A DNA stretch of 64,000 nt from Alkaliphilus metalliredigens QYMF (lineage in GTDB: Bacteria; Bacillota; Clostridia; Peptostreptococcales; Natronincolaceae). The first letter of the stretch is position 1. Every line of letters begins with the position of its first letter. The translations under genes were made by a program, and so were the position numbers. The notes under the pieces were generated by a model that had not been told where the DNA came from, searched no databases, and saw only the letters and a list, made by a program, of their open reading frames with translations. This document shows, piece after piece, positions 18,389 to 64,000 of the stretch. The DNA lies in NCBI RefSeq assembly GCF_000016985.1, contig NC_009633.1, forward strand, positions 2,211,539-2,275,538, in the 5' to 3' direction.

Positions 18389-19580
18389 AAAGATGATACT
18401 CAATCATTTGGTAGATAAATATGAAAAAAGTTCTTTGTACCGTGGGGATAATAAGGTCAATGTAACCATTGGCATGACCATCAATAAAAAAAACCTATCG
18501 GATTATTTTAATGAATGGGATTATACATTGAAAAAGGAGATCAATGAACAGGCCTTAAGTCTACAGGAGGAAGCGCTCATTGAAATCCAGTGGAAGAAGT
18601 TTCAAGAGGGAAACATCCTAGACAAATTAAAATTGAACATTGAATCACTGGATCGTGTTTATGAAGTATTAAAAAGACAGCCAAAGAGTCAGCTAGAGAA
18701 TGACGTTGGCACCATTGTCATGGGTTATTGTGATAGAACGGATTGGCTGGGTGATTTTGCAAGGGATATGAAAGAGAAGCTAGTTCAAAAGGGCAGTATT
18801 AAAAAATACTTGGACATAGAGGATCGGGTAGAGGTCAAGGATGTATTCATGGCTCTGGATCAAATACGAGCCCAGACCGATGAAATACCCAAGCGGGTTT
18901 TCAGTATAAGGGTATTTTCAGATTCCAAACGTTTTGAAAGGGTAGAGTCTAAAGTGGTGAGAATCATGAGGGACTACGGGCCCTATGAAGTGGATATGGA
19001 TATATTGGCGGAGGAAAATATTATCCAAAATCCTAGCTATGTCTTTCTGAAGGGAAAAGCTGTACTGCTCTGTAATGAAGAAACAATCAATTTAGAAAAG
19101 GTGGATGGTGAGATTGGTCTAGGTGCTGGTTTAATTGATAATCTAAGCTTCAAGACAATCGATGCAAAGAGAGTTTTAACCATTGAAAATTTAACAACCT
19201 TTCATTGCTATGAACCTAAGGATGAACTGGTGATCTATTTAGGTGGTTATCATAATGCCACAAGACGAAGACTCCTAAAGAAGATCCATGGGTTTAATCC
19301 TGATTTAGCCTTTTACCATTGGGGAGACATTGACCTGGGTGGCTTTAGAATTTTAAATCACCTTAGGAATAAGACTGGTATTAATGTGAAGTCTTATCGG
19401 ATGGATAGAGAGACATTAGAAATGTATAAAAATCATACCAAGAAGATAAAAAGTGAGCAATACAGTGGTGAATTAACAAAACTGTTGGAAAATGAGGAGT
19501 ATATAGAATTCCATGAAGTGATCAGATATATGATTGAGAATAATATGATATTGGAACAGGAAGCATTGGATATAGGATGA
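18375..19580 (+). CDS. jetD: Wadjet JetD (Toprim-domain nuclease subunit, MksG-like)
   Basis: C-terminal Toprim-like 'IYLGGYHN...FYHWGDIDLGGFRIL'. 401 aa. Overlaps jetC by 14 nt. Confidence 0.8.
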   Translation: MKNYKKMILNHLVDKYEKSSLYRGDNKVNVTIGMTINKKNLSDYFNEWDYTLKKEINEQALSLQEEALIEIQWKKFQEGNILDKLKLNIESLDRVYEVLKRQPKSQLENDVGTIVMGYCDRTDWLGDFARDMKEKLVQKGSIKKYLDIEDRVEVKDVFMALDQIRAQTDEIPKRVFSIRVFSDSKRFERVESKVVRIMRDYGPYEVDMDILAEENIIQNPSYVFLKGKAVLLCNEETINLEKVDGEIGLGAGLIDNLSFKTIDAKRVLTIENLTTFHCYEPKDELVIYLGGYHNATRRRLLKKIHGFNPDLAFYHWGDIDLGGFRILNHLRNKTGINVKSYRMDRETLEMYKNHTKKIKSEQYSGELTKLLENEEYIEFHEVIRYMIENNMILEQEALDIG

Positions 19581-19934: not shown

Positions 19935-21170
19935 TTGATTGAACTTATTAAGGATTTATTGATAAATTATGGTACAAATGAGAGGGTAGCCCAGTATTTC
20001 TCTAATACAATAGCGGTTATCGTGATTATCATGGTCAGCCTGATCGTTGATTCAATTGTGCGAAAGGTTCTTCTTAGAACGTTAAAGTCTTATACTGAGA
20101 AAACAAAAGCTAAATGGGACAATATCATTGTAGAGAAAAAGGTTTTTGATCGACTGGCTCGTATTGTGCCAATAGGAATCATACATGCATTTGCTCCAGT
20201 ATTTCCTGCTTATCAAATGTGGATTCAGAGAATTGCTTTTGCCTGTATTGTTTTCATTGTTTTACTAGCACTCAATCGATTCTTAGATGCCATAAATTAT
20301 ATCTACTCAAGCTATGGAATAGCTAAGGTAAGACCTATTAAAGGATATATTCAGGTGGTAGAGATCACTTTATATACCATTGGTATTATTATCATTATCA
20401 GTGTTTTGATAGATCGTTCTCCGTGGATTTTATTAAGTGGTGTAGGTGCTGCAACAGCAGTATTTATTCTTGTTTTTCAAAACTCCATACTGGGACTTGT
20501 AGCCAGTATTCAAATTACCACAAATAACATGCTACAAATCGGAGACTGGATCGAAATGCCTAAGTATGGAGCGGATGGAGATGTGTTAGAGATCTCTCTG
20601 CATACAGTAAAGGTACAAAACTGGGATCAAACGATTATTATGATTCCAACCTATTTACTTATATCAGAATCATTTAAGAACTGGAGAGGGATGCAGGAGT
20701 CCGGTGGTAGAAGAATTATGAGAGCTGTCTATATAGATGTCACAAGCATCAAATTTTGTGATGAAGAGATGCTAGCAGGATTTGAGGAAATCCAATACAT
20801 TAAAGAAGACCTTCAGAATAAGAGAAAAGAAATAGATAAATACAACAAGGATTATAAAGTGAATTCCGCACATGCTGCTAACGGAAGACACATAACCAAT
20901 ATAGGGATCTTTAGGAGTTATATAGAGAACTACTTAAAAAATCATCCTAAGGTAAGTCAAAATATGATCCAAATGGTGAGACAGCTTCAACCCACTGAAA
21001 ATGGATTGCCCATAGAAATATATGCTTTCACAAATGAAATCGCATGGGCAGATTATGAGGCAATACAAGCGGATATTTTTGATCATATATTAGCTGTGCT
21101 TCCTGAGTTTGATCTTAGGATTTATCAAGGGCCCACAGGATATGATTTTAGTAAACTGAGAAGTATATAG
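19935..21170 (+). CDS. Mechanosensitive ion channel (MscS family)
   Basis: N-terminal TM helices, then the MscS beta-domain 'IGDWIEMPKYGADGDVLEISLHTVKVQNWDQTIIMIPTYLL'. TTG start with RBS ggagggg. Confidence 0.8.
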   Translation: MIELIKDLLINYGTNERVAQYFSNTIAVIVIIMVSLIVDSIVRKVLLRTLKSYTEKTKAKWDNIIVEKKVFDRLARIVPIGIIHAFAPVFPAYQMWIQRIAFACIVFIVLLALNRFLDAINYIYSSYGIAKVRPIKGYIQVVEITLYTIGIIIIISVLIDRSPWILLSGVGAATAVFILVFQNSILGLVASIQITTNNMLQIGDWIEMPKYGADGDVLEISLHTVKVQNWDQTIIMIPTYLLISESFKNWRGMQESGGRRIMRAVYIDVTSIKFCDEEMLAGFEEIQYIKEDLQNKRKEIDKYNKDYKVNSAHAANGRHITNIGIFRSYIENYLKNHPKVSQNMIQMVRQLQPTENGLPIEIYAFTNEIAWADYEAIQADIFDHILAVLPEFDLRIYQGPTGYDFSKLRSI

Positions 21171-21228
21171 AATTCCATGAAGTGCTCAGCTATGGGTATA
21201 GTTGTAAATGAGGGAAGGAGAGAAGGGT

Positions 21229-48386: not shown

Positions 48387-50042
48387 ATGAAATTACAACT
48401 GAATAAGCGTCGTATACTTAAGGGAATATTTATTTTTGCTGCTGTATTTATGGTCATAATGGTCATGATACTGACCATATTAGTTGTGGGAGCATATCAG
48501 GAGGACCTTAGTCAGTTAGAGGATCCCTTGCCCAAGGCACTGATTATTTTTGATAAAGAAGAGGAGGTCGTATCGGAACGGTCTTCCGCCCAATTTAATC
48601 CAGTTCCATTATCACAAATACCAGAGGAGTTACTGGCTGCCATTGTTGCCGTTGAAGATCAGCGATTCTATGATCACTCAGGGGTCGACCTTCGGGGGAT
48701 TGTCCGTTCGGCTTGGCGAAATATGCGAGCAGGCTCTATTGTTGAAGGAGGCAGTACCCTGACACAACAATTGGCGAAAAATCTTTTCCTTACGTCGGAA
48801 CGGACATATACTCGTAAATTCAAAGAAGTCATTACCGCCTATCGAATCGAGGGCCAATATAGCAAAGAAGACATATTAGAGTTATATTTAAATCAAATCT
48901 ACTTTGGTGAAGGGACTTGGGGTATTCAGAATGCCGCACAAATTTATTTTGGTAAAGACATAGAAGAAATTACCCTATCTGAAGCAGCACTTTTAGCTGC
49001 CTTACCTAAGGCGCCAACTCATTATTCTCCCTTTAAAAATGAAGAAAAGGCCAAGGAACGACGGAACCTTGTTCTCTATTTACTTCATGATCAAAATGTG
49101 ATTGATGAAAATGAATATGATAGTGCAGTGAATGAGGAAATCATTTTGAGAGATTGGGAATTAGATGTTTTGAGAGGGAAATATCCTAGTTATGTTGACC
49201 ATGTTATTGAAGAAGCCATTCATAAACATGGGTTTGATGAGGAATATCTTTTAACAGGTGGATTACATATTTATACGCAAATGGACGTGGTTGTACAAAC
49301 TGCAATTGAAACCACTTATGAAAACGAGGCACTATTCCCAGAAAATAGTGGCGACGAAATTGTTCAAAGTGCAACTGTTGTGATGGATCCATCTAACGGT
49401 GGCATACGTGGCCTTGTAGGCTATCGTGGGGAGCACTTTCATCGTGGCTATAACCGGGCCACACAGTTAAAAAGACAACCAGGTTCTTCTATAAAGCCAT
49501 TGGCTGTTTATGCACCAGCCTTGGAAAATGGTTATAAACCTGACTCAATGCTAATTGATGAGAAAACAGATTTTAATGGCTATGCACCAAGGAACTACAA
49601 TGACAGCTACCAGGGGAGCGTTAGTCTATCTGATGCATTAGTCTATTCTATTAATGTACCTGCAGTGGCATTGCTACATGAAATAGGGATCGATACTGGT
49701 ATTGGTTTTCTAGAAAAGTCCGGTATTCCAATGCATCAAGACGATCGAAATTTAAGCATCGCACTTGGTGGATTCACAGAGAGGGTTTCTCCTTTAGAAA
49801 TGGCACAAGCATTTAGTATGTTTCCTAACTTAGGCTCAATGAACCAAGCACATGCCATTACAAGAATTACCTCTAGTACGGGTAAAGTTTTATTTGAAGT
49901 TGTTGAAAAAGCAGTTGACGTGATGAAACCAGAAAATGCCTATAGAATGACCCAAATGTTAATGGGAGTTGTTCAAGAAGGGACTGGGAAAAATACAGCC
50001 TCACACCAAAGCTTAGGATCTAATATGACTTTAATATTATGA
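48387..50042 (+). pseudogene. Class A penicillin-binding protein (GT51 transglycosylase + transpeptidase), 3'-truncated before the KTG motif
   Basis: GT51 'EDQRFYDHSGVDLRGIVRSAWRN'. TPase SxxK 'GSSIKP', SxN 'YSIN'. The reading frame ends right after '...GVVQEGTGKNTAS' with an unrelated tail and overlaps the convergent recombinase gene. No KTG(T/S) box. Confidence 0.55.
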
Positions 50043-50929
50043 AAACATTTACTGCCAGTAAGATTAATTGTATACTTTTTCGTTTCTTTATCCTTGAGGA
50101 ATATCTTATCTTTACCAGATGGACGCTGATATGCTATGTAGATTGGATTGGTTAACATATACACAACTTGACTTTGCTTTAAAGGTAAGGGGTCTTTTGA
50201 TGGTTTCATCTCATTGGCAAAGCCTAATAAACCGTCAATTGTAACGTTACTAGATAAATATTCTTCAAAAATTGCTTTCACAATAGGAGCTTCCACTTGA
50301 TGAGGAACTAACTCATATTCATCATCATACTGTTCTAAATATTCATCGACGTTCTCTGTAAGACCAAAAGGGATATGGGCTCCTCTAGAATAGAGTCCTT
50401 TTTCTCTTTTAACCTTTCTTCCTAAGGAAGTTCTTTCGTTGATTTCCTTAGACTCTAGTTCACTGATCCCCATCAGTATATTTTCAATAAAGTCTGAGTA
50501 GTAGTTATTGGAGTCTGCTTGAAATTCACCTGGCGCAGAGTATAGGATCTTCACATTATGTTTTTTACATAGCTTTTTAATACTGAGGAGTTCATTGAAG
50601 TTTCTAGAGAGTCGATCCCTCTTGAAGACGACAAGGGTTTTAAATTTATCCTGTTTCAAGTCATATAATAATTCACAAAAGCCATTTCTTTTGTCATAAG
50701 TATACGTAGATGCAGATTCGCTATCCCAATAGGATTTATATATAAGCAACCCCTTCGAATTAATGACTTGTTTTCCTGTGAAAATTTGAGAGGGGATCGA
50801 GTGACTCTCAGTTTTGATTAATTTTCTAGCATAAATGGCTGCATAGTCATAAGGTGTTAAAAATAAGATATCATCCTCAACGGTTGCAAAGTTTGCGCTG
50901 GGATCATCAACAATGATTTTTTCCTCCAT
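49973..50929 (-). CDS. Serine recombinase (resolvase/invertase-family catalytic + recombinase domains), apparently degenerate or truncated
   Basis: 'AAIYAR...HSIPSQ', 'LVVFKRDRLSRNFNELLSIKKLCKKHNVKIL', 'ERTSLGRKVKREKGLYSRGAHIPFGL'. The expected nucleophile Ser in YxRVS is replaced (YARKL). Only 318 aa; the large-serine-recombinase C-terminal domain is absent. Confidence 0.6.
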   Translation of the reverse strand: MEEKIIVDDPSANFATVEDDILFLTPYDYAAIYARKLIKTESHSIPSQIFTGKQVINSKGLLIYKSYWDSESASTYTYDKRNGFCELLYDLKQDKFKTLVVFKRDRLSRNFNELLSIKKLCKKHNVKILYSAPGEFQADSNNYYSDFIENILMGISELESKEINERTSLGRKVKREKGLYSRGAHIPFGLTENVDEYLEQYDDEYELVPHQVEAPIVKAIFEEYLSSNVTIDGLLGFANEMKPSKDPLPLKQSQVVYMLTNPIYIAYQRPSGKDKIFLKDKETKKYTINLTGSKCFHNIKVILDPKLWCEAVFFPVPS

Positions 50930-51577: not shown

Positions 51578-52045
51578 CTATGATGCAGAGGCTTTGCTAT
51601 TGCTTACCTTTAAGTTTTTAATAAATTGAAGTTGGCTAATTACATGATCTGCTATAGAGTGAATTTTATCGACATCGCATTGATATTCTGAAATAGTGGC
51701 TAAGTAAGAGTGAATGAGGGTATTTAACTGTTCGTTGATAATATGAATTTGATCACTTGAGTCATTGGGCATTTCTTTGATAAGTACCTTCTTAACTGCT
51801 TCCTCAATATATAAACTTCTTATATCGATAGAATTGGTTTGTAATAGCTCACCTAAAGAAACACCAAGGGAATTTGTAATTCTATCTAGAAGACCAAGTC
51901 TAAAGACCTCATGATTTCCATTTTCAACGTTGCTCAATTGGCCAGTTGAAATATTAATATGCTTTGCAAATTCCACAGAAGTTAAGTTTTTTTCTTTCCT
52001 ATAATTTCTAATGTTTTTACCTAAGGTTTTATGGATATCAGACAT
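51578..52045 (-). CDS. XRE-family HTH transcriptional regulator
   Basis: 'LGKNIRNYRKEKNLTSVEFAKHINISTGQLSNVENG'. RBS aggggggag. Confidence 0.85.
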   Translation of the reverse strand: MSDIHKTLGKNIRNYRKEKNLTSVEFAKHINISTGQLSNVENGNHEVFRLGLLDRITNSLGVSLGELLQTNSIDIRSLYIEEAVKKVLIKEMPNDSSDQIHIINEQLNTLIHSYLATISEYQCDVDKIHSIADHVISQLQFIKNLKVSNSKASAS

Positions 52046-52348: not shown

Positions 52349-53296
52349 ATGTCTAAGGTATCAAATGCCCTAAATATGTACTTTTTACTACAAGTCAGAG
52401 GAGCGATGAGGGTTAAAGAAATTGCGGAAGCACTAGAGGTAACTCCTAGGATGGTAAAAAAGTATAAGCAAGATTTAGAAATGGCAGGGATATATGTAGG
52501 CTCTAAACTAGGAAGAGCTGGAGGGTACTACTTAGAAAATAAGAGAAGATTAGATGCCATTGGCCTTACTGAAGAAGAGCTAATTACCTTGAAAATGGCA
52601 AACAAAACAATACAAAGCGGAAAATATCACTACCAATCAAGGTTTGAAACTACAGTAAACAAAATATTAAATTGCAATCAACACACAGAGGAAATTAATT
52701 ATCATAACAAGTCAATGAGAGAATCAGATGAAATTCTAAAAAAAGAAAAGCATACATGGGTAGATATAAATATTGCAGTTAACCAAAACAGAAGAGCGTC
52801 CATAAAATACAAATCTTTAAAAAAGCATGGAATAGAAATAAGAGAACGATTAGTCAATCCATATGGGATTTTTGATTATAAAGGGGCTACATATTTTTAT
52901 GGTTATTGCGATACCGCAAAGGACATACGATTTTTCAAACTGTCTCGAGTTATTGAATATAGGGTATTAGATGAAAAATTTACTGGGAATACTGACTTTA
53001 ATTTTGATAAAGTATTAGAAAAATCCTTTGGAATATACAATGATGAGTTCATAGATCTTAAATTAAATATTTCTTATCCTATGAGTGAAATTGTAAAGGA
53101 AAAACAGATCGCAAAGGATCAAAGGATAACAGAAATAGATGAGAAAACCATATGCTTTGAAGCAAAAATAAAGGGCTATGCAGAAATAAAAACATGGGTC
53201 ATGAGTCTTGGGAGTAGTGCTGAGGTAATACAACCATCAAAGTTGAAAGAAGAGATTATAGCGGAAGCCCATAAGATGACAAAGATATATCAGTAG
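52349..53296 (+). CDS. wHTH-WYL domain transcriptional regulator (CapW/BrxR-like), likely cas-operon regulator
   Basis: N-terminal wHTH 'MRVKEIAEALEVTPRMVKKYKQDLEMAGIYV'. WYL-like core 'YFYGYCDTAKDIRFFKLSRVIEY'. Encoded directly upstream of the cas operon. RBS gagggaggag before ATG 52349. Confidence 0.7.
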   Translation: MSKVSNALNMYFLLQVRGAMRVKEIAEALEVTPRMVKKYKQDLEMAGIYVGSKLGRAGGYYLENKRRLDAIGLTEEELITLKMANKTIQSGKYHYQSRFETTVNKILNCNQHTEEINYHNKSMRESDEILKKEKHTWVDINIAVNQNRRASIKYKSLKKHGIEIRERLVNPYGIFDYKGATYFYGYCDTAKDIRFFKLSRVIEYRVLDEKFTGNTDFNFDKVLEKSFGIYNDEFIDLKLNISYPMSEIVKEKQIAKDQRITEIDEKTICFEAKIKGYAEIKTWVMSLGSSAEVIQPSKLKEEIIAEAHKMTKIYQ

Positions 53297-53365
53297 GTAA
53301 AAATTTGAACTTATGTAGTTGTTTGCTAAATTACTTTTTAATGGTACATTCTATTTCCCCTTTAT

Positions 53366-53377
53366 ATACTACAATTA
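53366..53377. repeat. 12-bp direct repeat ATACTACAATTA (left copy), putative target-site duplication of the IS
   Basis: Identical 12-mer at 55066-55077, immediately flanking the IR-like ends. Confidence 0.6.
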
Positions 53378-55065
53378 TAGGTAATTGCGAAACTAAATTT
53401 GAAAAGTAGTTAGAAGGGCAGAAAATTGATTGCTGATTAAATTTTTTATAGAGACAAGGCGTACCGGTTAACTATGCAATAAGTGGTTTTAAACTTCTGA
53501 TGTATTTGTGTTGATGTATTTTATCAGCAAGTATAACAGTAACGAGCTGGGTGATACCAGCAAGCAATAAATCAGCATGTAATGTTTTAGCATTCTGTGT
53601 TCTTCGATTAGCAATACAAAAGCTATCTTTAAAATGGTTAATGGTTTGTTCAACTACACCTCTATTTTTATAGGTTTCATCCCAATCATCTGTGCCCCGA
53701 ATGGTACCAGGATAAGCACGTAAGTCTTTTTCAGGATACACATAAATCATTCGACCACAAGGTGATGAAGTACAGGGATTATCGCAGTTATGTCGACGTC
53801 GATACTTGCCGTCTCCACATTTAGTCCAAGACATTTTAGGACAGACAAACTTGAAAGTAGGAATACCACACCGAAGATGAGAAGTATTGCCTTCGGGCTT
53901 CATAGGTAGTTTAGGATCATGAGGACAACAGGGAATCCCATCTTCAGTAAGAGTGTATTCAGAGCTGCTAAGGGAAGACCTAGGATTTAGGGGGATATAA
54001 GCTTTATTGAACTTTAAATCCGAAAAAATTCCTTTGTAGATAGATATGGTATCAAAAGCAGCATCCCCGATGAAGGTATCTGGTTGAATGAGTGGATGTT
54101 TATTAAAAAAGTCAGATAACACTGGTAAAAGAGCTTTTGCATCACCAAGGGACTTATCTTCATCAGGAGAGTTAGATTTTTTGTCAACAACAATGTCAGG
54201 ATGAGCATTCATAAAATCTTGATCGTAAAAAGTAATATCACGCACAATACCAAGACCATTGGTGAGCATCCCAAATTTATAGACATAACAAAAATGACCA
54301 TTGATGTAAAGCTGCTTAATTTCTGGATTAGCCGCTGCATGAGAAGGCATGGAACCATAGGCTGCTTTATACGGATCATAGGAATCATCAAGGTTATGAG
54401 CCTTTTTAAAAGCTTTAAGTTGTTTAATAATTTTATTAGCGTATTTAGGATTGTTTTCAGTAACAAAAGCTTCAATGCCAGAAGTATCAAAGATAGTCAT
54501 AGAAGCCTTATGAGGATCAATAGCCTGGCAAACAGGTTCAGTGACATCCACAAGATGCTCAAAGAATGACTGTAAGTCTGGCAAAAAATCTTGTTTGAAC
54601 CTAGTAAATCTAGAAGCATCAGGTACATTGGTGAAACCACAAAAATCTCTAAGTTCCTTAGAAAACTGAAGAAAAGTCAGCAACAATGTATCGTTTGGAA
54701 TGGAGAAAATCCGCTGCAGAAGCAAAGCCCAAACCATTGATGTAAGATGATGTTTTCTAGGTCTGCCAGTAGATGCATAGTAATTACGATGAAAAGAAAG
54801 AGGTATTATCTCATTAAGATTAAGGTTTTCTTTTAAAAGAGAAAGAAAGTGATGTTTATCATTTTCAAAATAATTGGCACAATCGGAATGAATTTCAGCC
54901 AAAGAAAGCTGTTTATGTGGTAAAATAGCCATATATAACTCCTTTCAGGTTGGGTGAATTTGTTTCTGTCAATTCAATTTTACCACAATCTGGTGAGGAG
55001 TTATATTTTTTTATGCTTAAAAAAGTCCCGCAATAGTGCGGGTTGCGGCGTTTTGCAAACGCCTA
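53378..55065 (-). mobile_element. Insertion sequence (IS5/IS1182-family-like), 1688 bp, with imperfect terminal inverted repeats
   Basis: Left end TAGGTAATTGCGAAAC versus rc of right end TAGGCGTTTGCAAAAC (12/16 identical). Flanked by the 12-bp direct repeat. Carries a single transposase gene. Confidence 0.65.
53472..54932 (-). CDS. DDE transposase (IS5/IS1182 family; N-terminal DUF772-like region and Cys-rich insert)
   Basis: 'GRPRKHHLTSMVWALLLQRIFSIPNDTLLLTFLQFSKELRDFCGF' (DUF772-like). 'FIGDAAFD'. Cys cluster 'CPKMSWTKCGDGKYRRRHNCDNPC'. Confidence 0.7.
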   Translation of the reverse strand: MAILPHKQLSLAEIHSDCANYFENDKHHFLSLLKENLNLNEIIPLSFHRNYYASTGRPRKHHLTSMVWALLLQRIFSIPNDTLLLTFLQFSKELRDFCGFTNVPDASRFTRFKQDFLPDLQSFFEHLVDVTEPVCQAIDPHKASMTIFDTSGIEAFVTENNPKYANKIIKQLKAFKKAHNLDDSYDPYKAAYGSMPSHAAANPEIKQLYINGHFCYVYKFGMLTNGLGIVRDITFYDQDFMNAHPDIVVDKKSNSPDEDKSLGDAKALLPVLSDFFNKHPLIQPDTFIGDAAFDTISIYKGIFSDLKFNKAYIPLNPRSSLSSSEYTLTEDGIPCCPHDPKLPMKPEGNTSHLRCGIPTFKFVCPKMSWTKCGDGKYRRRHNCDNPCTSSPCGRMIYVYPEKDLRAYPGTIRGTDDWDETYKNRGVVEQTINHFKDSFCIANRRTQNAKTLHADLLLAGITQLVTVILADKIHQHKYIRSLKPLIA

Positions 55066-55077
55066 ATACTACAATTA
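55066..55077. repeat. 12-bp direct repeat ATACTACAATTA (right copy of the putative TSD)
   Basis: See left copy. Confidence 0.6.
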
Positions 55078-55097
55078 AAATGAAAGGAGGTGGAGAA

Positions 55098-55826
55098 GTG
55101 AGATTTGGTGTAGAAATTTTTTTAGAAAAAGAAATGTTACCTAAGGACAAAAACAGGATTATTTTATCAATCATTAAAAATTGCTTTAGTAGTTGCAATA
55201 AGGAGTACTATAAAGCCTTATATAAAGATACTCCCAATCAAACAAAAGATTTTACTTTCTCATTATACCTAGGTGATTGCAAATTTTTAAGAGAAGAGAT
55301 TTTAGTGCCTAGCAAGAAAATTTATTTGAATTTCTCTACATACCATAATGAGGATGGGATTATGTTCTTCAACTCTATGTTAATGAACAAAGGAAAAGCT
55401 TTTTCTATAAGAGATAACACATATACAATTGGTAAAATAAATTTGAAGAGGGAAAAATTAATCACTGAGCATCAAGTAATCTTTAAAACAATGAGTCCTA
55501 TTGTAGCTAGGGAACATCAAGGAGATAACAAAAAAACTTGGTACCACTCACTCAACACGGAAGAAGGACAAGCTGTTTTCCTAGAAAATCTTCAATATCA
55601 ATTGAAAGATGCGTTTGGAGAAGGGATTTTAATGGATTCTAGAAAGCTTAGTATAGAAGTATCCCAAGACAACAAAGAAGTGAAGGTAAAAAACTATGGG
55701 ATCGAAATACTTTCTAATTTAGCTAAGATTAGGATTCAGGGAGCACCTTATATCTTAGACTATCTATATAAAGCTGGGATAGGAAGCAAGAGAGGCAGTG
55801 GATTTGGCATGGTAGATATTGTGTAG
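55098..55826 (+). CDS. cas6: CRISPR endoribonuclease Cas6 (type I-B)
   Basis: Gly-rich loop 'GIGSKRGSGFGMV' near the C-terminus. GTG start after aaaggagg. First gene of the cas operon. Confidence 0.85.
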   Translation: MRFGVEIFLEKEMLPKDKNRIILSIIKNCFSSCNKEYYKALYKDTPNQTKDFTFSLYLGDCKFLREEILVPSKKIYLNFSTYHNEDGIMFFNSMLMNKGKAFSIRDNTYTIGKINLKREKLITEHQVIFKTMSPIVAREHQGDNKKTWYHSLNTEEGQAVFLENLQYQLKDAFGEGILMDSRKLSIEVSQDNKEVKVKNYGIEILSNLAKIRIQGAPYILDYLYKAGIGSKRGSGFGMVDIV

Positions 55827-55839
55827 AGGGGGTGAGATA

Positions 55840-57503
55840 GTGGCACAAAGAATACGATTGGAAATGAATGATTGGCTATATAATGCAGGGCTAGTAGGAT
55901 TATATAATATTTTAGTTCATTCCGGAGAAAAGGTAAAAATGAATGAACAAGGAATCGAAATGGATCAATCTCAACTAGAAAACTTTGAAGAAAGGTACTT
56001 CACTTACTTTATTGAGAAATATGAAGTATATTTGTCCTGGTATAAGATCATATCATACAAAGATGTACTTACTTATCATCAAAAACAAAACTTTAATAGT
56101 TTTGGAGAAGAAGAACTAGATTCATTAAATCAGTATATAAAAGACGTTAAGCATTACTTGAGTAGCAATAGCTACAAAGCTGCATATGAACTCATCGGAA
56201 GTCAAGTGACTCTCTTAGAACTTGCAAAGAAATTGCAAACGATCAAGTTAAAGAAGAAAGAAACAATTGGAGAAAAGTTGATAGAAATTAAAGAGACAGT
56301 GAATAAATTAAATGAAATTATTGGCCACTGTATGGAGGAAGATTATAAGAAGTATTTAGCAGGTAAAAATGTTATTTATACGATTATCAAAAATGGATGG
56401 AATGGGGTAAGTATCCTAAATCCACAGACAAAAGAAAAAGACATATATATGGATTATAAGAATTATTTCGTGAAACCAGTTGAAGATTACATGGGTGATG
56501 ATAAAAGCACGAAAAAGTATAATTGTTTTACATGTGATAGAGAAATGAAAGACTTGAAGAATGACTTAAGCTTCTTGAATCAGGTTGGTTTCGATGTTAG
56601 CAGAAAAGCGTCTCACACTTGGGACTTTGTCAACGATATTGCAATCTGTCCGATCTGTAAACTTGTCTTTTCTTGTGTGCCTGCGGGGATGACATATGTT
56701 TACTCGAAAGGTATTTATATTAATGACAATAATAGTTTTCAAAGGGCAGTCAATGTAAACCAGAGAATAAAAAGTGAGATTTTAAAAGAACATGAGGACA
56801 ACCGGTTGTTAACCTATAGGGCCTTAGTTAAATCTATTCAAGAGCAGATTCATGAGAAAATTAAATATGAATTGGCTGATATTCAAGTAATTAGATACGA
56901 AGAGGAGAAGTACAGGTTTAATATCTTAACAAGACAAATGATAAAAATTATTCAACAATCTAAACATAGTTTAGGATATATTCACAATAGTGGATTTAAA
57001 GAAGTGAACACATATTTTAATATTTACGAGCTAGTAATTGAACGAGTATTGAATAATCAAAACCTATTTACACTTATACATAAGCTTCTTTCGTACAAAC
57101 TATCAAGCCCTAAGAATTGTAGATTTACAACATCGCAAGTTATTAGTGTTTTGGAAATAAACTTTAGATTTTTGGAAGGGATGGGCTATATGCAAAATGC
57201 AGATCAAGATATGATTAAAAAGGCAAATGTATCAGGCTATTACCTGCGAGAGCAATATAAAGTAAAAGGAGCAAAGGATAAGTTAAATGGAGTTTCTTAC
57301 CGTCTATTAAATGCACTGAAAACTAACAAAAAAGATATGTTTATGGATACTTTATTAAACTGTTATCTGTATGCTCAAAAGACAGTACCTAGTATATTCT
57401 TGGATGCCTTAGAGGATGAGGAAAAATATAAGACAATAGGATATGCTTTTGTGGCTGGATTAATTGAAGGTAAAGACCATCAAAATAAAGAGGGGGATCA
57501 ATA

Positions 57504-57504
<1 letters not shown>
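55840..57504 (+). CDS. cas8b: Cas8b (Csh1) large subunit, type I-B
   Basis: N-terminal 'WLYNAGLVGL'. Zn-finger-like 'CFTCD...CPICK'. Size and position between cas6 and cas7. Confidence 0.8.
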
Positions 57505-59154
<1,650 letters not shown>

Positions 59155-59175
59155 AAATGATATAGGAGGAAAACA

Positions 59176-61407
59176 ATGAAACGATATCTAGCAAAATCTA
59201 ATCCGGAAGAAACCATCCAGGAGCATACGGATCATTTGATTGAAAACTATAAGCTGTTAAAATTAATATATCCCAATTTACAAGTAAATTGGGATATATT
59301 ATATCTTGCATGCCTTTATCATGATTTAGGTAAAATGAACTTGAAGTTTCAAGATAAGATTAAAGGAATAAAAAAATCGGAAGACGAAATTCCCCATGGA
59401 ATTTTAAGTCTAGCGTTTATTAATTCAAAAGAGTTGAAAGATAAAGGGTTTAGTAAAAGCGATATAAAAATTTTAGCCCATGCCATCGCCTATCATCATG
59501 AAAGAGAGTTTAACTATGATCACAATGACATTAAAGAAGAAATAGAGTTGTTAAAAGGTGAAGGCATCCATTTTAGCTATGATAAGATAGAAAAAATAAG
59601 TGTCAAAAATTTAAGCGCAAAATATTTTTCCAAGGATAGAATTTATCAGCAAGAGGATGAAGAAATGTTTTTATCATATATCAAGGTAAAAGGCCTATTA
59701 AATCGAATTGACTATGCTTCTAGTGGAGATATAGACATAGAAGTGAAAAACAACTTCTTAAACAATTGTTTAAGAGATTTGATGAAAGAATGGCAAGAAA
59801 AAAACTCCAATGCAGAATGGAATGAATTACAAAGGCATATGCTCTTTCATAAAAATGATAATGTCATCGCTATTGCAGAAACGGGCATGGGGAAAACAGA
59901 AGCGGGTCTTTTATGGATTGGAGATAACAAAGGATTTTTTACGCTTCCACTTAAAACTGCTATCAATGCCATGTATGATCGTATCGCATTAGACATGATA
60001 AAAGAAGGCTATGAAAATAAAATTGGATTACTACATTCTGATACTTATAGTGAATACTTGAATCGAGATGGAGAGGCAATTGACATTGATGAATATTATA
60101 ACAAGACCAAACAATTATCCCTGCCGTTAACAATATGTACATTAGACCAAATTTTTGATTTTGTTTACCGATACAGAGGATTTGAGTCTAAGTTAGCTAC
60201 TTTAGCATATGCTAAGGTTGTGATTGATGAGGTTCAAATGTACTCAGCAGATTTACTAGCATATCTAATCATTGGATTGTCTTATATTACAAAAATTGGA
60301 GGCAAGTTTGCCATACTGACAGCCACTTTACCAGATTTGGTGCTGGATTTGTTACAAGAGGAAGAGATAACTTTTGTTTCTCCTAAAACCTTTACCAACA
60401 ATCAAAGGATTCGTCATAGTGTAAAAGTCCTCAATGAACAACTAAACCACAATACTGTTCTGGATTTATACAATGAAAACAAAGTATTAGTAATTTGTAA
60501 TACGGTAAAGGAAGCTCAAAGGATGTATAAGCTGTTGAAGGATTCAAAGAAAATAAGGAATTTGAATTTATTTCATAGTAACTTTATCAAGAAGGACCGT
60601 AAGGAAAAAGAAAAACAGATACTAGAAATAGGGCATAGGGAGTCTAAGCAATATGGGGTATGGGTAACGACTCAGGTAGTAGAAGCTTCTTTAGATATTG
60701 ATTTTGATATACTTATTACTGAATTATCAGATTTGAATGGACTCTTTCAACGAATGGGCAGATGCTACAGAGGGAGAGAGTGGGAGAAAGACGGATATAA
60801 CTGCTATGTATTTGATGGAGGAGCAGAAGAGTGTAGTGGTATTGGATATGTCATAGATGAGGATATTTTTCAATTATCCAAAACAGCGTTACAAGATGTT
60901 GGGGGGGAGTTAAAAGAAGAAAAGAAGATGAACTTGGTTCAATCTTTATATACTACAGAAAATTTAAAGGCTACAAAGTATTATAAACAAATCAAAAGTA
61001 ATATAGACTATGTAACCAGTATAGAAGACCATGAAAAATCTAAAAACGAAGTAAAGAAAATATTTAGGAATATCCATTCTATTACAGTAATTCCAAGAGA
61101 AGTATATGAAGAAAATCAAGAAGCAATTAGTGAGTATATTCTTATCTTATCCAAAAACTACAGTAAGCTCATGGATGAAGAAGAAAGAAGGGTACTAAGA
61201 ACAAAAAAGTCGGTCATTAGAAGTCGGTTAATGGAGTTTACGATGAGTGTGCCCTATCATAGGGGGCAAGGTAATATCATAAAAAATATCAATATCAATC
61301 GATATGAGTCTATTCCTATACTCAATTGCAACTACTCTAAAGAGTTAGGGATTCAGTACATTGAACAAAGTAAAGTGAAAAAGGCTCCATTTGATAATTT
61401 CATATAA
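59176..61407 (+). CDS. cas3: Cas3 HD nuclease-helicase fusion
   Basis: HD 'LACLYHDLGK', 'IAYHHE'. Helicase motifs 'AETGMGKTEA', 'VVIDEVQMY'. Confidence 0.9.
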   Translation: MKRYLAKSNPEETIQEHTDHLIENYKLLKLIYPNLQVNWDILYLACLYHDLGKMNLKFQDKIKGIKKSEDEIPHGILSLAFINSKELKDKGFSKSDIKILAHAIAYHHEREFNYDHNDIKEEIELLKGEGIHFSYDKIEKISVKNLSAKYFSKDRIYQQEDEEMFLSYIKVKGLLNRIDYASSGDIDIEVKNNFLNNCLRDLMKEWQEKNSNAEWNELQRHMLFHKNDNVIAIAETGMGKTEAGLLWIGDNKGFFTLPLKTAINAMYDRIALDMIKEGYENKIGLLHSDTYSEYLNRDGEAIDIDEYYNKTKQLSLPLTICTLDQIFDFVYRYRGFESKLATLAYAKVVIDEVQMYSADLLAYLIIGLSYITKIGGKFAILTATLPDLVLDLLQEEEITFVSPKTFTNNQRIRHSVKVLNEQLNHNTVLDLYNENKVLVICNTVKEAQRMYKLLKDSKKIRNLNLFHSNFIKKDRKEKEKQILEIGHRESKQYGVWVTTQVVEASLDIDFDILITELSDLNGLFQRMGRCYRGREWEKDGYNCYVFDGGAEECSGIGYVIDEDIFQLSKTALQDVGGELKEEKKMNLVQSLYTTENLKATKYYKQIKSNIDYVTSIEDHEKSKNEVKKIFRNIHSITVIPREVYEENQEAISEYILILSKNYSKLMDEEERRVLRTKKSVIRSRLMEFTMSVPYHRGQGNIIKNININRYESIPILNCNYSKELGIQYIEQSKVKKAPFDNFI

Positions 61408-61421
61408 AAAATGGGATTAGG

Positions 61422-61922
61422 GTGAGAGATATGCAAAAGATAACAGGTGTAATGGTGTACTATTATTTTGTCTGTCAAAGAAAACTATGGTTTTTTAGTC
61501 GTCACTATACAATGGAAGACAATAGTGAGTTGGTAAGTATGGGAAAATTGATAGACGAAACCTCATATAAAAGAGAAAAGAAAAATATTCTAATTGATGA
61601 AGAGATTAATATAGATTTTCTTAAGGATTGGAAAGTGATACACGAAGTTAAAAAGTCAAGAAAAGTGAATGAAGCTTCAAAATGGCAATTAAAATATTAT
61701 ATATGGCTATTGAGAAATAAAGGTGTTGAGATTGAGAAGGGGGTATTAGATTACCCCCTTCTTAGAAAAAGAGAAGATGTGTTTGTGAGTGAAAAGGATG
61801 GAAAAGATTTAAATGAGATATTAGATAAAATAGATGAGATCAGATCATTGAAAATTCCACCTGTGATCAGTACAAAAGGCATATGTAAAAAATGTGCTTA
61901 TTATGAGCTTTGCTACATATAG
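61422..61922 (+). CDS. cas4: Cas4 (RecB-like nuclease with 4Fe-4S Cys cluster)
   Basis: N-terminal 'YYFVCQRKLWFF'. C-terminal 'CKKCAYYELC'. Confidence 0.85.
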   Translation: MRDMQKITGVMVYYYFVCQRKLWFFSRHYTMEDNSELVSMGKLIDETSYKREKKNILIDEEINIDFLKDWKVIHEVKKSRKVNEASKWQLKYYIWLLRNKGVEIEKGVLDYPLLRKREDVFVSEKDGKDLNEILDKIDEIRSLKIPPVISTKGICKKCAYYELCYI

Positions 61923-61932
61923 GAGGGGTAAT

Positions 61933-62925
61933 GTGGGCGAGACTTTTTATATTTTCCAGGATGGTCAATTGAAAAGAAAAGATAATAATATAGTGATGAG
62001 CACATTATCGGGCCAGAAGAAAAATTTGAAATCTGAAGTAACAGATGAAATATATATTTTTGGTGAAATAGAGACAAACAGTAAACTACTTAATTTTTTA
62101 TCCCAGCAAAAAACTACGATGCATATTTTTAATTATTATGGTTTTTATAGTGGGAGCTTTTACCCTAGAGAAAGTAACGTAAGTGGACATTTGCTTGTAA
62201 ATCAAGTGAAAAAATATGATAATACTGAAGAACGAGTAAGAATTGCAAAAGAGATGTTGAAATCTGCTGCTCATAACATATACAGAAATTTAAGGTATTA
62301 CAATGGTAGAGGAACTGATGTTGAATCAGCTATGAAAGATATTCAGAGATTGATTAAGCGTTTAGATTACTGTGCAAGTATTCATGAACTTATGGGAACT
62401 GAGGGAAACATCAGAAAAATATACTACTCTACTTGGAATGCAATAGTGAAACAAGATATTAGATTTGAAAAAAGAAAGAAAAGACCCCCAGATAATTTGA
62501 TTAATTCATTGCTCTCTTTTGTAAATAGCTTGATTTATACCACTGTGCTGTCTGAAATATATAAGACACAATTAAATCCTACTATCAGTTATTTACATGA
62601 GCCAGGAACCAAGAGGTTTTCTTTATCCTTAGATATAGCAGAGATATTTAAACCTTTAATTGGTGAAAGAATGATATTTTCATTACTTAACAAAAATCAA
62701 ATCACTGAGCAGGATTTTGAAAAAGAATCTAATTACTTGTATTTGAAAGAAGCTGGTAAGAAGAAAATCTTAATAGAGTACGATCAACGACTTAAAAGAA
62801 CATTATTCCATAAAGGGCTGGGGCGAGAAGTTTCTTACCGATACTTGATTAGGTTAGAATGTTATAAGCTGATCAAAGATATTATTGATGAAAAACAATA
62901 TGATGGATTTAAAATTTGGTGGTGA
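61933..62925 (+). CDS. cas1: Cas1 integrase
   Basis: 'TFYIFQDGQLKRKDN', 'LMGTEGNIRKIYY', 'DPTISYLHEPGTKRFSLSLDIAEIFKP'. GTG 61933 after aggagggg. Confidence 0.85.
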   Translation: MGETFYIFQDGQLKRKDNNIVMSTLSGQKKNLKSEVTDEIYIFGEIETNSKLLNFLSQQKTTMHIFNYYGFYSGSFYPRESNVSGHLLVNQVKKYDNTEERVRIAKEMLKSAAHNIYRNLRYYNGRGTDVESAMKDIQRLIKRLDYCASIHELMGTEGNIRKIYYSTWNAIVKQDIRFEKRKKRPPDNLINSLLSFVNSLIYTTVLSEIYKTQLNPTISYLHEPGTKRFSLSLDIAEIFKPLIGERMIFSLLNKNQITEQDFEKESNYLYLKEAGKKKILIEYDQRLKRTLFHKGLGREVSYRYLIRLECYKLIKDIIDEKQYDGFKIWW

Positions 62926-62929
62926 GCAT

Positions 62930-63208
62930 ATGTATATCATTTTAATGTATGATATAATGATGGACAAGACTGGAGCCAAGGTACAGAGAAATACTTTTAA
63001 AATTTGCAAAAGGTATTTAACCCATATACAAAATTCTGTATTTGAAGGAAACTTGACGGAGTTAAACTTGATGAAATTGAAGAAAGAATTAAGTGAATAC
63101 ATCCGAAAGGAGCAAGATTCATTTATCATATTTAACAGTAGAGATGAGAAGTGGCTAACAAAAGAATTTTTAGGAAAAGAAGATGATAAAACATCTAATT
63201 TTTTTTAG
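62930..63208 (+). CDS. cas2: Cas2
   Basis: 'MYIILMYDIMMDKTGAKVQRNTFKICKRYLTHIQNSVFEG', the canonical Cas2 N-terminus. RBS ggtggtgag. Confidence 0.9.
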   Translation: MYIILMYDIMMDKTGAKVQRNTFKICKRYLTHIQNSVFEGNLTELNLMKLKKELSEYIRKEQDSFIIFNSRDEKWLTKEFLGKEDDKTSNFF

Positions 63209-63391: not shown

Positions 63392-64000
63392 CCCTTTAAT
63401 TGAACTAGAGTAGAATGTAAATGGTGTTACTGGACATAATAAATATTGCACCAGACTGCCTTTAATTGAACTAGAGTAGAATGTAAATAATAATTGTGAT
63501 GTGACTTAAATTATCCTTTGCTGCCTTTAATTGAACTAGAGTAGAATGTAAATTTTGGAGTAATTTGCAATCTGCTATATAATCCCTCCCCTTTAATTGA
63601 ACTAGAGTAGAATGTAAATTTGCATTGGCAAGCAATTCTAAAGCTTCGGTATTATCCCTTTAATTGAACTAGAGTAGAATGTAAATTTTTAAAACCATTA
63701 GAAAAGTCTTGTGGTGATGCAGTCCTTTAATTGAACTAGAGTAGAATGTAAATTATTTTGCATACATTGCTATAACCCTCAAATCATCTTCCTTTAATTG
63801 AACTAGAGTAGAATGTAAATGTGTTAGAACATTGTAGTAAAAACAGTATCGCCAACCCTTTAATTGAACTAGAGTAGAATGTAAATAAAGTATTCCGCTA
63901 TACTGGTTTTGTTCTTCTCAAAACCTTTAATTGAACTAGAGTAGAATGTAAATAGATTTAACAGTGTTGATACTAACATCATATTTTACACCTTTAATTG
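63392..64000 (+). CRISPR. CRISPR array, 30-bp repeat CCTTTAATTGAACTAGAGTAGAATGTAAAT, 9 complete spacers (35-37 bp), runs off the window end
   Basis: Repeats start at 63392, 63458, 63523, 63589, 63656, 63723, 63790, 63857, 63924 and 63991 (partial). The repeat ends in GAATGTAAAT, typical of Clostridial I-B arrays. Leader 63209-63391 adjoins cas2. Confidence 0.95.

Follow-up and report, generated by a model that had tools for sequence, protein, structure and literature searches.

A DDE insertion sequence beside the cas6 ribosome-binding site of Alkaliphilus metalliredigens and a probable target rule of its family

An insertion sequence between a WYL gene and cas6

We analyzed a 64-kb stretch of the Alkaliphilus metalliredigens QYMF genome, hereafter the window, and all positions are those of the whole stretch. 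In it a complete insertion sequence (IS) of 1688 bp occupies 53378-55065 (minus strand), between the gene for a WYL-type regulator and cas6, the first gene of a type I-B CRISPR-Cas operon. Its extent was set by a full-length match to a relative (L001, aligned over element bases 1-1688 at 89.6% nucleotide identity), by conserved termini, and by the 10-14 bp duplications of relatives. The full junction reads ...CCCTTTAT-ATACTACAATTA-(TAGGTAATTGCGAAAC ... GTTTTGCAAACGCCTA)-ATACTACAATTA-AAAT-GAAAGGAGGTGGAGAA-GTG, with the element in parentheses. A sole open reading frame (ORF) fills the element, a transposase gene of 486 amino acids at 53472-54932 (minus), with non-coding flanks of 94 nt and 133 nt. 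In the QYMF source genome its product is 100% identical to one protein, and four more A. metalliredigens proteins are 96-97% identical; the IS copy itself is an ordinary transposase gene, already annotated. Taken as one joint claim, that 53378-55065 is an intact DDE-type IS, that it is a real insertion, and that its family follows the target rule described below is a conclusion in which we have good confidence.

The element is flanked by perfect copies of ATACTACAATTA, the target-site duplication (TSD), which we read directly from the sequence at 53366-53377 (left copy) and 55066-55077 (right copy), neither having a strand. These are the only two occurrences of this 12-mer in the 64 kb, the chance expectation is 0.03, and none of 100 shuffles held two or more matches. 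The terminal repeat at the transposase 3' side (IRR), TAGGTAATTGCGAAAC, lies at 53378-53393 (plus) and is identical or has no more than 1-2 mismatches in most family members, while that at the transposase 5' side (IRL), TAGGCGTTTGCAAAACGCC, lies at 55047-55065 (minus), is conserved in the family, and holds a 7-bp self-hairpin (GGCGTTT/AAACGCC). The two agree at only 12/16 positions, which is weak evidence taken alone, and a search of the window with TAGGTAATTGCGAAAC at up to 3 mismatches found no match besides itself. We accept them as inverted repeats despite this weak mutual match because family conservation validates the termini, the consensus ends being TAGGCGTTTGCGAAACGCC next to the transposase 5' end, which is the right-hand end in the window, and TAGGTAATTGCGAAAC at the opposite end.

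A first-pass annotation of this DNA had proposed these IS ends, a perfect 12-bp TSD, and a site between the WYL gene and a type I-B cas operon, and we found all of these, the gene set and neighbors included, where it had put them; the imperfect inverted repeats it described are backed by conservation across relatives. Its distance of 21 bp upstream of cas6 applies to the duplication, whose end we place 20 nt from the cas6 start codon, whereas the IS end itself is 32 nt away. The intact TSD, which it took to suggest a recent insertion, bounds divergence only loosely, and protein differences of 3-4% separate the other homologues in A. metalliredigens.

A genome scan returned 332 relatives, from which 80 loci were kept, with single genomes holding up to at least 5 copies. 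Alignments begin at element base 1 in dozens of loci beyond L001, many short contigs start or stop exactly at the IS termini, and both termini are conserved across ~70 copies; relatives with these termini occur in more than 80 genomes. Perfect duplications of 10-14 bp flank 28 independent insertions (10 bp at 4 of them, 11 bp at 14, 12 bp at 6, 13 bp at 3, and 14 bp at 1), and the 12-bp duplication of the window is typical of the family; viral contigs contributed 8 further sites with a clear duplication. Terminal repeats, a flanking duplication, copies scattered over unrelated sites, and a homologous site that is unoccupied together identify an autonomous DDE insertion sequence.

That unoccupied site was found in a metagenome-assembled genome (MAG) of the Tissierellales (L083-L085), the nearest homologous locus available, where the WYL gene, a spacer of 97 nt, and cas6 follow one another and Cas6 identity is 69%. 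Its spacer is colinear with 53297-53377 and 55078-55097 joined, a reconstructed site of 101 nt that includes the ribosome-binding site. On this alignment ancestral WYL-cas6 adjacency is shown at the level of sequence, and the empty-site sequence offered in the first-pass annotation agrees with it. Exact-pattern scans of metagenome contigs, with patterns spanning the junction or covering the cas6 start, did not recover an IS-free strain of the same species; this counts against our reading of the locus, and because of it the empty site is a reconstruction and not an observation. Exact-protein look-ups with Cas7 and WYL returned short Logan contigs only, and exact Cas6 look-ups with either start gave no match. 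One Logan contig (SRR9436253; L082:1-1151) encodes the exact WYL protein, runs through the duplication and 31 nt into the IS, and then ends. A multi-copy repeat would be expected to stop an assembler in this way, and the sample shares the insertion of the window.

We rebuilt the empty sites of the 28 insertions with a clear duplication and anchored them at the duplication's motif-side edge. The motif [G/A]AAAGGAG begins exactly 4 nt past the duplication in 28/28 of these independent insertions. Counted from that edge, position +5 is G or A in 27/28 sites, +6 is A in 21/28, +7 is A in 24/28, +8 is A in 26/28, +9 and +10 are G in 28/28 each, +11 is A in 25/28, and +12 is G in 23/28; the 4 spacer bases and the neighboring duplication bases are A/T-rich with nearly no C. 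The spacer is 4 nt at every duplication length, and the offset from the motif to the IS end moves one-for-one with the length of the duplication. Reading outward from IRL, GAAAGGAG lies ~15-18 nt off in nearly every flank, and a start codon usually comes next. With one mismatch allowed and offsets of 13-20, the motif was present in the IRL flanks of 50/63 unique sites and in the IRR flanks of 0/54 (background 0.0016 per position), and in the independent viral-contig set the rule holds at 7/8 sites with a clear duplication. Constant distance and orientation place the element in the functional class of site-specific, oriented IS, which is not a homology family. The downstream genes are varied and real, and include those for GcvT, a polysaccharide dehydratase, PrpF, DegV, solute-binding proteins, and a recombinase. 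At about 1/3 of sites the motif is present and a convincing gene start is absent, which argues that it is the DNA motif that is recognized and not a gene.

The cas6 site, ATACTACAATTA-AAAT-GAAAGGAGG with IRL toward cas6, is an exact fit to this rule. The constant spacer AAAT lies at 55078-55081 (plus), 4 nt as in 28/28 sites, and the target motif GAAAGGAGG at 55082-55090 (plus) is the cas6 ribosome-binding site, which is native to cas6, as AGGGGAGG stands at the corresponding alignment position in the IS-free relative. Exact matches to [G/A]AAAGGAG number 13 in the 64-kb window, which would correspond to about a thousand candidate sites per genome. The sequence thus indicates that cas6 was struck for its strong ribosome-binding site and not as a CRISPR gene, and points to no CRISPR-specific event; for this reason the insertion is not evidence of a relationship between the IS and CRISPR, and what it leaves is an intact operon physically uncoupled from its WYL regulator.

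A more distant relative (36% protein identity) on the Clostridium tetani plasmid NZ_AP026807.1 (L111:1030-1075) has similar ends, TAGTCGCTTGCAAAAC / TAGCTGATTGCAAAAC. A divergent gene has its ribosome-binding site, AAAGGGGGG, 11 nt from the transposase-5' end of this relative. No duplication can be seen there, and distant relatives may share the targeting habit at a different spacing.

The cas operon and its transcription

To the left of the IS lies the gene for an HTH-WYL-WCX regulator of the CRISPR-associated WYL type (52349-53296, plus), recognized by Pfam WYL, WCX, and HTH_11 and by PADLOC cas-associated WYL models (E 4e-35); its ATG at 52349 is preceded by GAGGGAGGAG. To the right, all on the plus strand, are cas6 (55098-55826; Pfam and NCBIfam Cas6), cas8b (55819-57504; Pfam Cas_CXXC_CXXC, the large subunit, with zero NCBIfam matches), cas7 (57504-58388; Pfam DevR/Cas7), cas5 (58366-59154; Pfam), cas3 (59176-61407; Pfam, HD and helicase), cas4 (61422-61922; Pfam), cas1 (61894-62925; Pfam), and cas2 (62885-63208; Pfam). 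A CRISPR array with a 30-nt repeat, CCTTTAATTGAACTAGAGTAGAATGTAAAT, follows at 63393-63953 (plus) with at least 9 repeats, and continues past the window edge. This gene set, in the order cas6-cas8b-cas7-cas5-cas3-cas4-cas1-cas2 with an adjoining array, is that of type I-B, the subtype being called via Pfam and gene order. All eight genes of the operon (55098-63208) and the array are intact, with no signs of decay seen, and the visible array spacers match neither the IS nor any retrieved locus, which leaves no self-targeting among them. The GTG at 55098 is the start that gives a 100% match to NCBI's 242-amino-acid A. metalliredigens Cas6. Called mechanically, the cas6 ORF has its start within the IS, at GTG 54954 (window 54954-55097), with a further in-frame ATG at 55080, and gene callers could over-extend the gene; for annotation, this means that the longest ORF of a targeted gene can begin inside the IS.

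The left part of the native WYL-cas6 spacer (53297-53365, plus), which aligns with the IS-free spacer of L083, has been severed from cas6, and any promoter or WYL operator within 53297-53377 has been moved 1.7 kb away from the ribosome-binding site of cas6. Weak promoter-like sites were found in this left part by a scan of the reconstructed empty site (TTGAAC-16-TAAATT, TTGCTA-16-TACATT, and GGTACA-16-TATACT). The sequence TACAAT in the duplication (53370-53375 and 55070-55075) aligns with a perfect TATAAT in the spacer of the IS-free relative, and the block around it, TTTCCnCnTTAnATA, is conserved too; it could be a native -10 element or a WYL operator, and the duplication would then have copied it to both sides of the IS. 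Inside the element, the promoter scan found an outward promoter-like site directed toward cas6, TTTACC-17-TATATT (54979-55007, plus), and across the family an outward promoter-like match ends 55-58 nt from the terminus in 46 scan hits for 58 distinct members, a figure that may include double counts. We rejected a candidate hybrid promoter at 55053-55081 (TTGCAA in IRL, TAAAAT in the flank), the start site of which would fall within or after the ribosome-binding site.

Because the native spacer is displaced while all cas genes and the array are intact, WYL control of the operon is probably weakened rather than the operon destroyed. The genes cas6-cas2 would no longer be driven from the native spacer and would rely on the outward site at 54979-55007, on transcription that enters from the WYL side and crosses the IS, or on the two together. 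Expression that continues in deregulated form is the outcome to which we tentatively incline, stopping just short of calling it probable. The insertion may instead have silenced the operon while leaving its genes undamaged, if the promoter 1.7 kb away is out of reach and neither read-through nor an IS promoter is useful, and we consider this a serious possibility of lesser weight; unchanged regulation via read-through takes up the remainder.

Silencing has a documented precedent in natural IS insertions that disable CRISPR-Cas, although those lie in cas coding sequences (Nat Commun 2023, PMC10359306). In both cases an IS has entered a cas locus and immunity may have been lost or rewired, whereas in QYMF all cas genes are intact and the changes are confined to the leader/promoter linkage and the link to WYL. 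Three points weaken the case for an active outward promoter, the first and third of which would also be in keeping with silencing. Promoter-like matches in this region are no commoner than chance (10 sites versus 7.6 expected); the outward site overlaps the conserved transposase promoter, which makes its conservation ambiguous and possibly a by-product; and transcription toward cas6 could be blocked by IRL hairpins, two hairpins lying between the outward site and cas6, or by Rho acting on 1.6 kb of untranslated antisense RNA, a classic Rho substrate. Against silencing, no plus-strand intrinsic terminator was predicted after the WYL gene or within the window's IS copy, nor in 35/67 family copies, and the outward promoter-like site is conserved in position. 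The absence of decay in the eight cas genes and the array also speaks against silencing, as does the presence of the same family upstream of intact metabolic genes in many genomes.

Target selection and the control region of the element

The fixed geometry of the insertions suggests that the transpososome reads duplex [G/A]AAAGGAG, the typical Firmicutes ribosome-binding site, on the target DNA. Upstream of the motif, one strand transfer falls at a distance of exactly 4 bp and the other 10-14 bp beyond it, with IRL (the transposase 5' end) always toward the motif and the transposase gene directed away from the targeted gene. From the usual geometry of staggered cuts, we infer that the fixed joint is made by the IRR end. 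Recognition would lie with the transposase protein, perhaps via a conserved Cys-rich insertion domain. Cys 336, 364, 383, and 387 are invariant among 29 homologues (71-100% identity) and all fall between D290 and E428.

Some observations weigh against this interpretation. About 20% of IRL flanks have no clear motif, and among copies that come in many cases from MAGs about half of those flanked by IRL have no detectable duplication; recombination, assembly joins, or end-calling may lie behind both. The AlphaFold model of the transposase has a mean pLDDT of 59 with the catalytic core below 50, too poor for claims about a target-binding domain, and a profile search of PDB sequences with the transposase gave nothing meaningful.

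A different explanation would place the link to ribosome-binding sites in selection after random or AT-biased insertion, with survivors that activate or spare the downstream gene and a transposase blind to the motif. Copies inside genes are purged, which enriches intergenic, AT-rich sites in general, and PMC2942039 discusses non-random intergenic IS placement. However, a constant 4-nt spacing with GG in 28/28 sites is not something selection can produce, nor are the one-for-one shift of the motif and its absence from all 54 opposite flanks, and ~1/3 of the motif sites have no plausible gene start. We therefore regard selection as a very unlikely source of the pattern and direct recognition of the motif as the better account.

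The 133-nt stretch from the IRL side to the transposase start is highly conserved in the family. Within it the 7-bp hairpin of IRL is 99.5% paired yet invariant, and so gives no covariation evidence. Further inward, between the IS end and the transposase promoter, we predicted an inward intrinsic terminator, CCCGCA-CTAT-TGCGGG plus a T-run (55019-55042, minus), whose hairpin shows compensatory CG/GC changes and whose stem is weaker, with an internal mismatch, in most relatives. An AACTCCT block (54996-55002, minus) is complementary to AGGAGTT of the transposase ribosome-binding site, and this predicted fold-back has 7 pairs with 98.6% of cells paired, one pair being AU in 22 sequences, UA in 9, and unpaired in none; the covariation signals of the terminator and the fold-back may each mirror a single clade split. 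The likely transposase promoter is an extended -10 element, TGGTAAAAT (54977-54985, minus), found by the inward promoter scan and conserved in at least 90% of aligned sequences, and the gene's own ribosome-binding site is GAAAGGAG (54939-54946, minus). Because AACTCCT lies upstream of this likely promoter, the fold-back would form only in read-in transcripts. The inward terminator and an RNA fold-back that hides the ribosome-binding site would together shield transposase translation from outside transcription. Fold-back inhibition is established for IS10 and IS50, in which sequence upstream of the transposase promoter likewise pairs with the transposase ribosome-binding site in read-in transcripts only; those elements belong to different families, and here the mechanism is drawn from sequence and covariation only.

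The transposase ribosome-binding site stands in a C-rich upstream context (window 54925-54946, minus; alignment columns 110-135), with C at -2/-3 in 33-37 of 53 copies. At real targets C is almost never found at the equivalent positions, and the C-rich context may guard the IS from self-insertion. A candidate conserved small outward ORF near IRL was discarded, as MLKKVPQ followed by a stop occurs only in the window copy and L001 and is missing from the family consensus.

Guidance of the target by nucleic acid, through pairing of an IS-encoded RNA or of the 16S rRNA 3' end (CCUCCUUUC) with the GAAAGGAG strand, would have a counterpart in IS110/IS1111, with their bridge or seeker RNAs. In favor of it, the Firmicute anti-Shine-Dalgarno sequence is exactly complementary to the motif, the element carries the conserved CTCCT-containing block at 54996-55002, and RNA-guided IS targeting occurs in another family (PMC11187229). 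That block, however, is fully accounted for by its covarying pairing with the transposase's own ribosome-binding site. The element also has a DDE transposase, ordinary terminal repeats, and long duplications and not a DEDD recombinase, and with 94 nt and 133 nt beside the ORF it has no structured non-coding region of any length, so that we give nucleic-acid guidance only a very slim chance relative to recognition by the protein. Finally, the view that 53378-55065 belonged to the ancestral locus or arose as an artefact of assembly, which could appeal to the missing IS-free strain of the same species, is effectively refuted already by the perfect duplication, the conserved termini, the hundreds of copies at unrelated sites in unrelated genomes, the IS-free homologous locus colinear with the reconstructed site, and the independent Logan assembly in which the WYL gene, the duplication, and the adjoining IS end are contiguous.

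Taken to its full extent, the evidence could describe a widespread clostridial IS family that acts as a "ribosome-binding-site hunter," with a single DDE transposase that reads duplex GAAAGGAG, possibly via the Cys-rich domain, and sets the element 4 bp upstream in one orientation, an outward promoter that replaces that of the host, and a shielded transposase; as a single package this is speculative, and we think it unlikely to hold as a whole. If it did, the IS would be a natural promoter-swapping element that uncouples any gene, here a CRISPR-Cas operon, from its regulator without damage. Target selection by one DDE protein that gauges 4 bp from a ribosome-binding-site motif, with the element always facing one way, would be of a new kind for a classical IS. 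Systematic rewiring of expression would then be expected in gut and environmental Clostridia, in which homologues number in the thousands. The rule is contrary to the usual view of IS copies upstream of genes as disfavored, and the element may have a use as a promoter-trap or knock-down tool.

Family affiliation, related systems, and neighboring features

The transposase has an N-terminal DUF772 domain (Pfam, 45.1 bits against a threshold of 23.1), while Pfam DDE_Tnp_1 scores 20.5 bits, below its gathering score of 23. The DDE residues are D149, D290, and E428, and the signature Y421-R424-E428-K435 reads Y-(2)-R-(3)-E-(6)-K; across the 29 homologues D149, D290, E428, R424, and K435 never change, and Y421 is kept in at least 90%. 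Membership of the IS4/IS5/IS1182 superfamily was assigned by motif, from the DDE triad and this signature. At the family level, the NCBIfam IS1182 equivalog NF033551 gives 60.9 bits against a cut-off of 270 and covers residues 263-462 only, and the IS5 models in NCBIfam have zero matches to the transposase. Duplications in the IS5 family are short (2-9 bp), whereas those of this element are 10-14 bp. The earlier assignment to an "IS5/IS1182 family" is therefore sound for the superfamily, through DUF772, the DDE residues, and the Y-R-E-K signature, and incorrect at the family level by the curated models.

Resemblance to the IS1182 family, the nearest one by homology, extends to a single transposase ORF, a ~1.7-kb element with terminal inverted repeats, the N-terminal DUF772, the DDE and Y-(2)-R-(3)-E-(6)-K residues with a long insertion between the second D and E, and a C-terminal catalytic part that aligns with the NCBIfam IS1182 model. 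Differences are the low score on that model, the sub-threshold DDE_Tnp_1, the 10-14 bp duplications, and the label "ISNCY family transposase" that NCBI attaches to two near-identical (96%) A. metalliredigens homologues (P0004 and P0005). The element is, as judged from its sequence, a distant member of the IS1182/IS5 superfamily that NCBI files as ISNCY. We know of no strict oriented target motif for any IS1182 or IS5 member. A tblastn search found 8 annotated plasmids with relatives, their features being nameless or plain "transposase."

One MAG contig of 1980 bp (L050:1900-1944) holds IRR, then 10 nt (CCCAATGGAA), then another IRL, a head-to-tail junction seen in this single case. A tandem dimer could account for it, as could reads from a circular intermediate, and the latter would hint at copy-out-paste-in transposition.

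Oriented targeting at a set distance has been described for other elements, which are the nearest functional analogues. IS1202 family and ISAjo2-type elements at dif/pdif sites (PMC10132070) are also DDE-type and insert in one orientation a fixed short distance from a host sequence, whereas their transposase is unrelated and their target is a recombinase-binding site, one or few per replicon. For the IS studied here, by contrast, the target is a ribosome-binding-site motif with about a thousand potential sites per genome. The TnsD pathway of Tn7, which uses attTn7 downstream of glmS, likewise recognizes a host sequence, inserts at a fixed offset and orientation beside it, and leaves the feature intact. 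Tn7 employs a dedicated target-selector protein and TnsC, has a single site, and inserts downstream of the gene, while our element has one protein and many sites and lands between a gene's promoter and its ribosome-binding site. We found no description of an IS that targets ribosome-binding sites in the full-text literature, queries with the terminal repeats included, with most subscription journals and the ISfinder/TnCentral notes outside the scope of that search. The target rule appears to be a variant of known oriented targeting, the newness of which is not proven.

To the left of the WYL-cas locus we detected a short serine recombinase gene (49973-50929, minus; 318 amino acids), with a Resolvase and a partial Recombinase domain, that overlaps the 3' end of a penicillin-binding-protein gene. 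At 51578-52045 (minus), just upstream of the locus, is an HTH (Cro/C1-type) gene, and the CRISPR locus may border a mobile-element remnant. Elsewhere in the window, and unrelated to the IS, a 41-nt direct repeat at 19489-19529 and 21153-21193 (90% identity, 1664 nt apart) probably marks paralogous neighboring genes.

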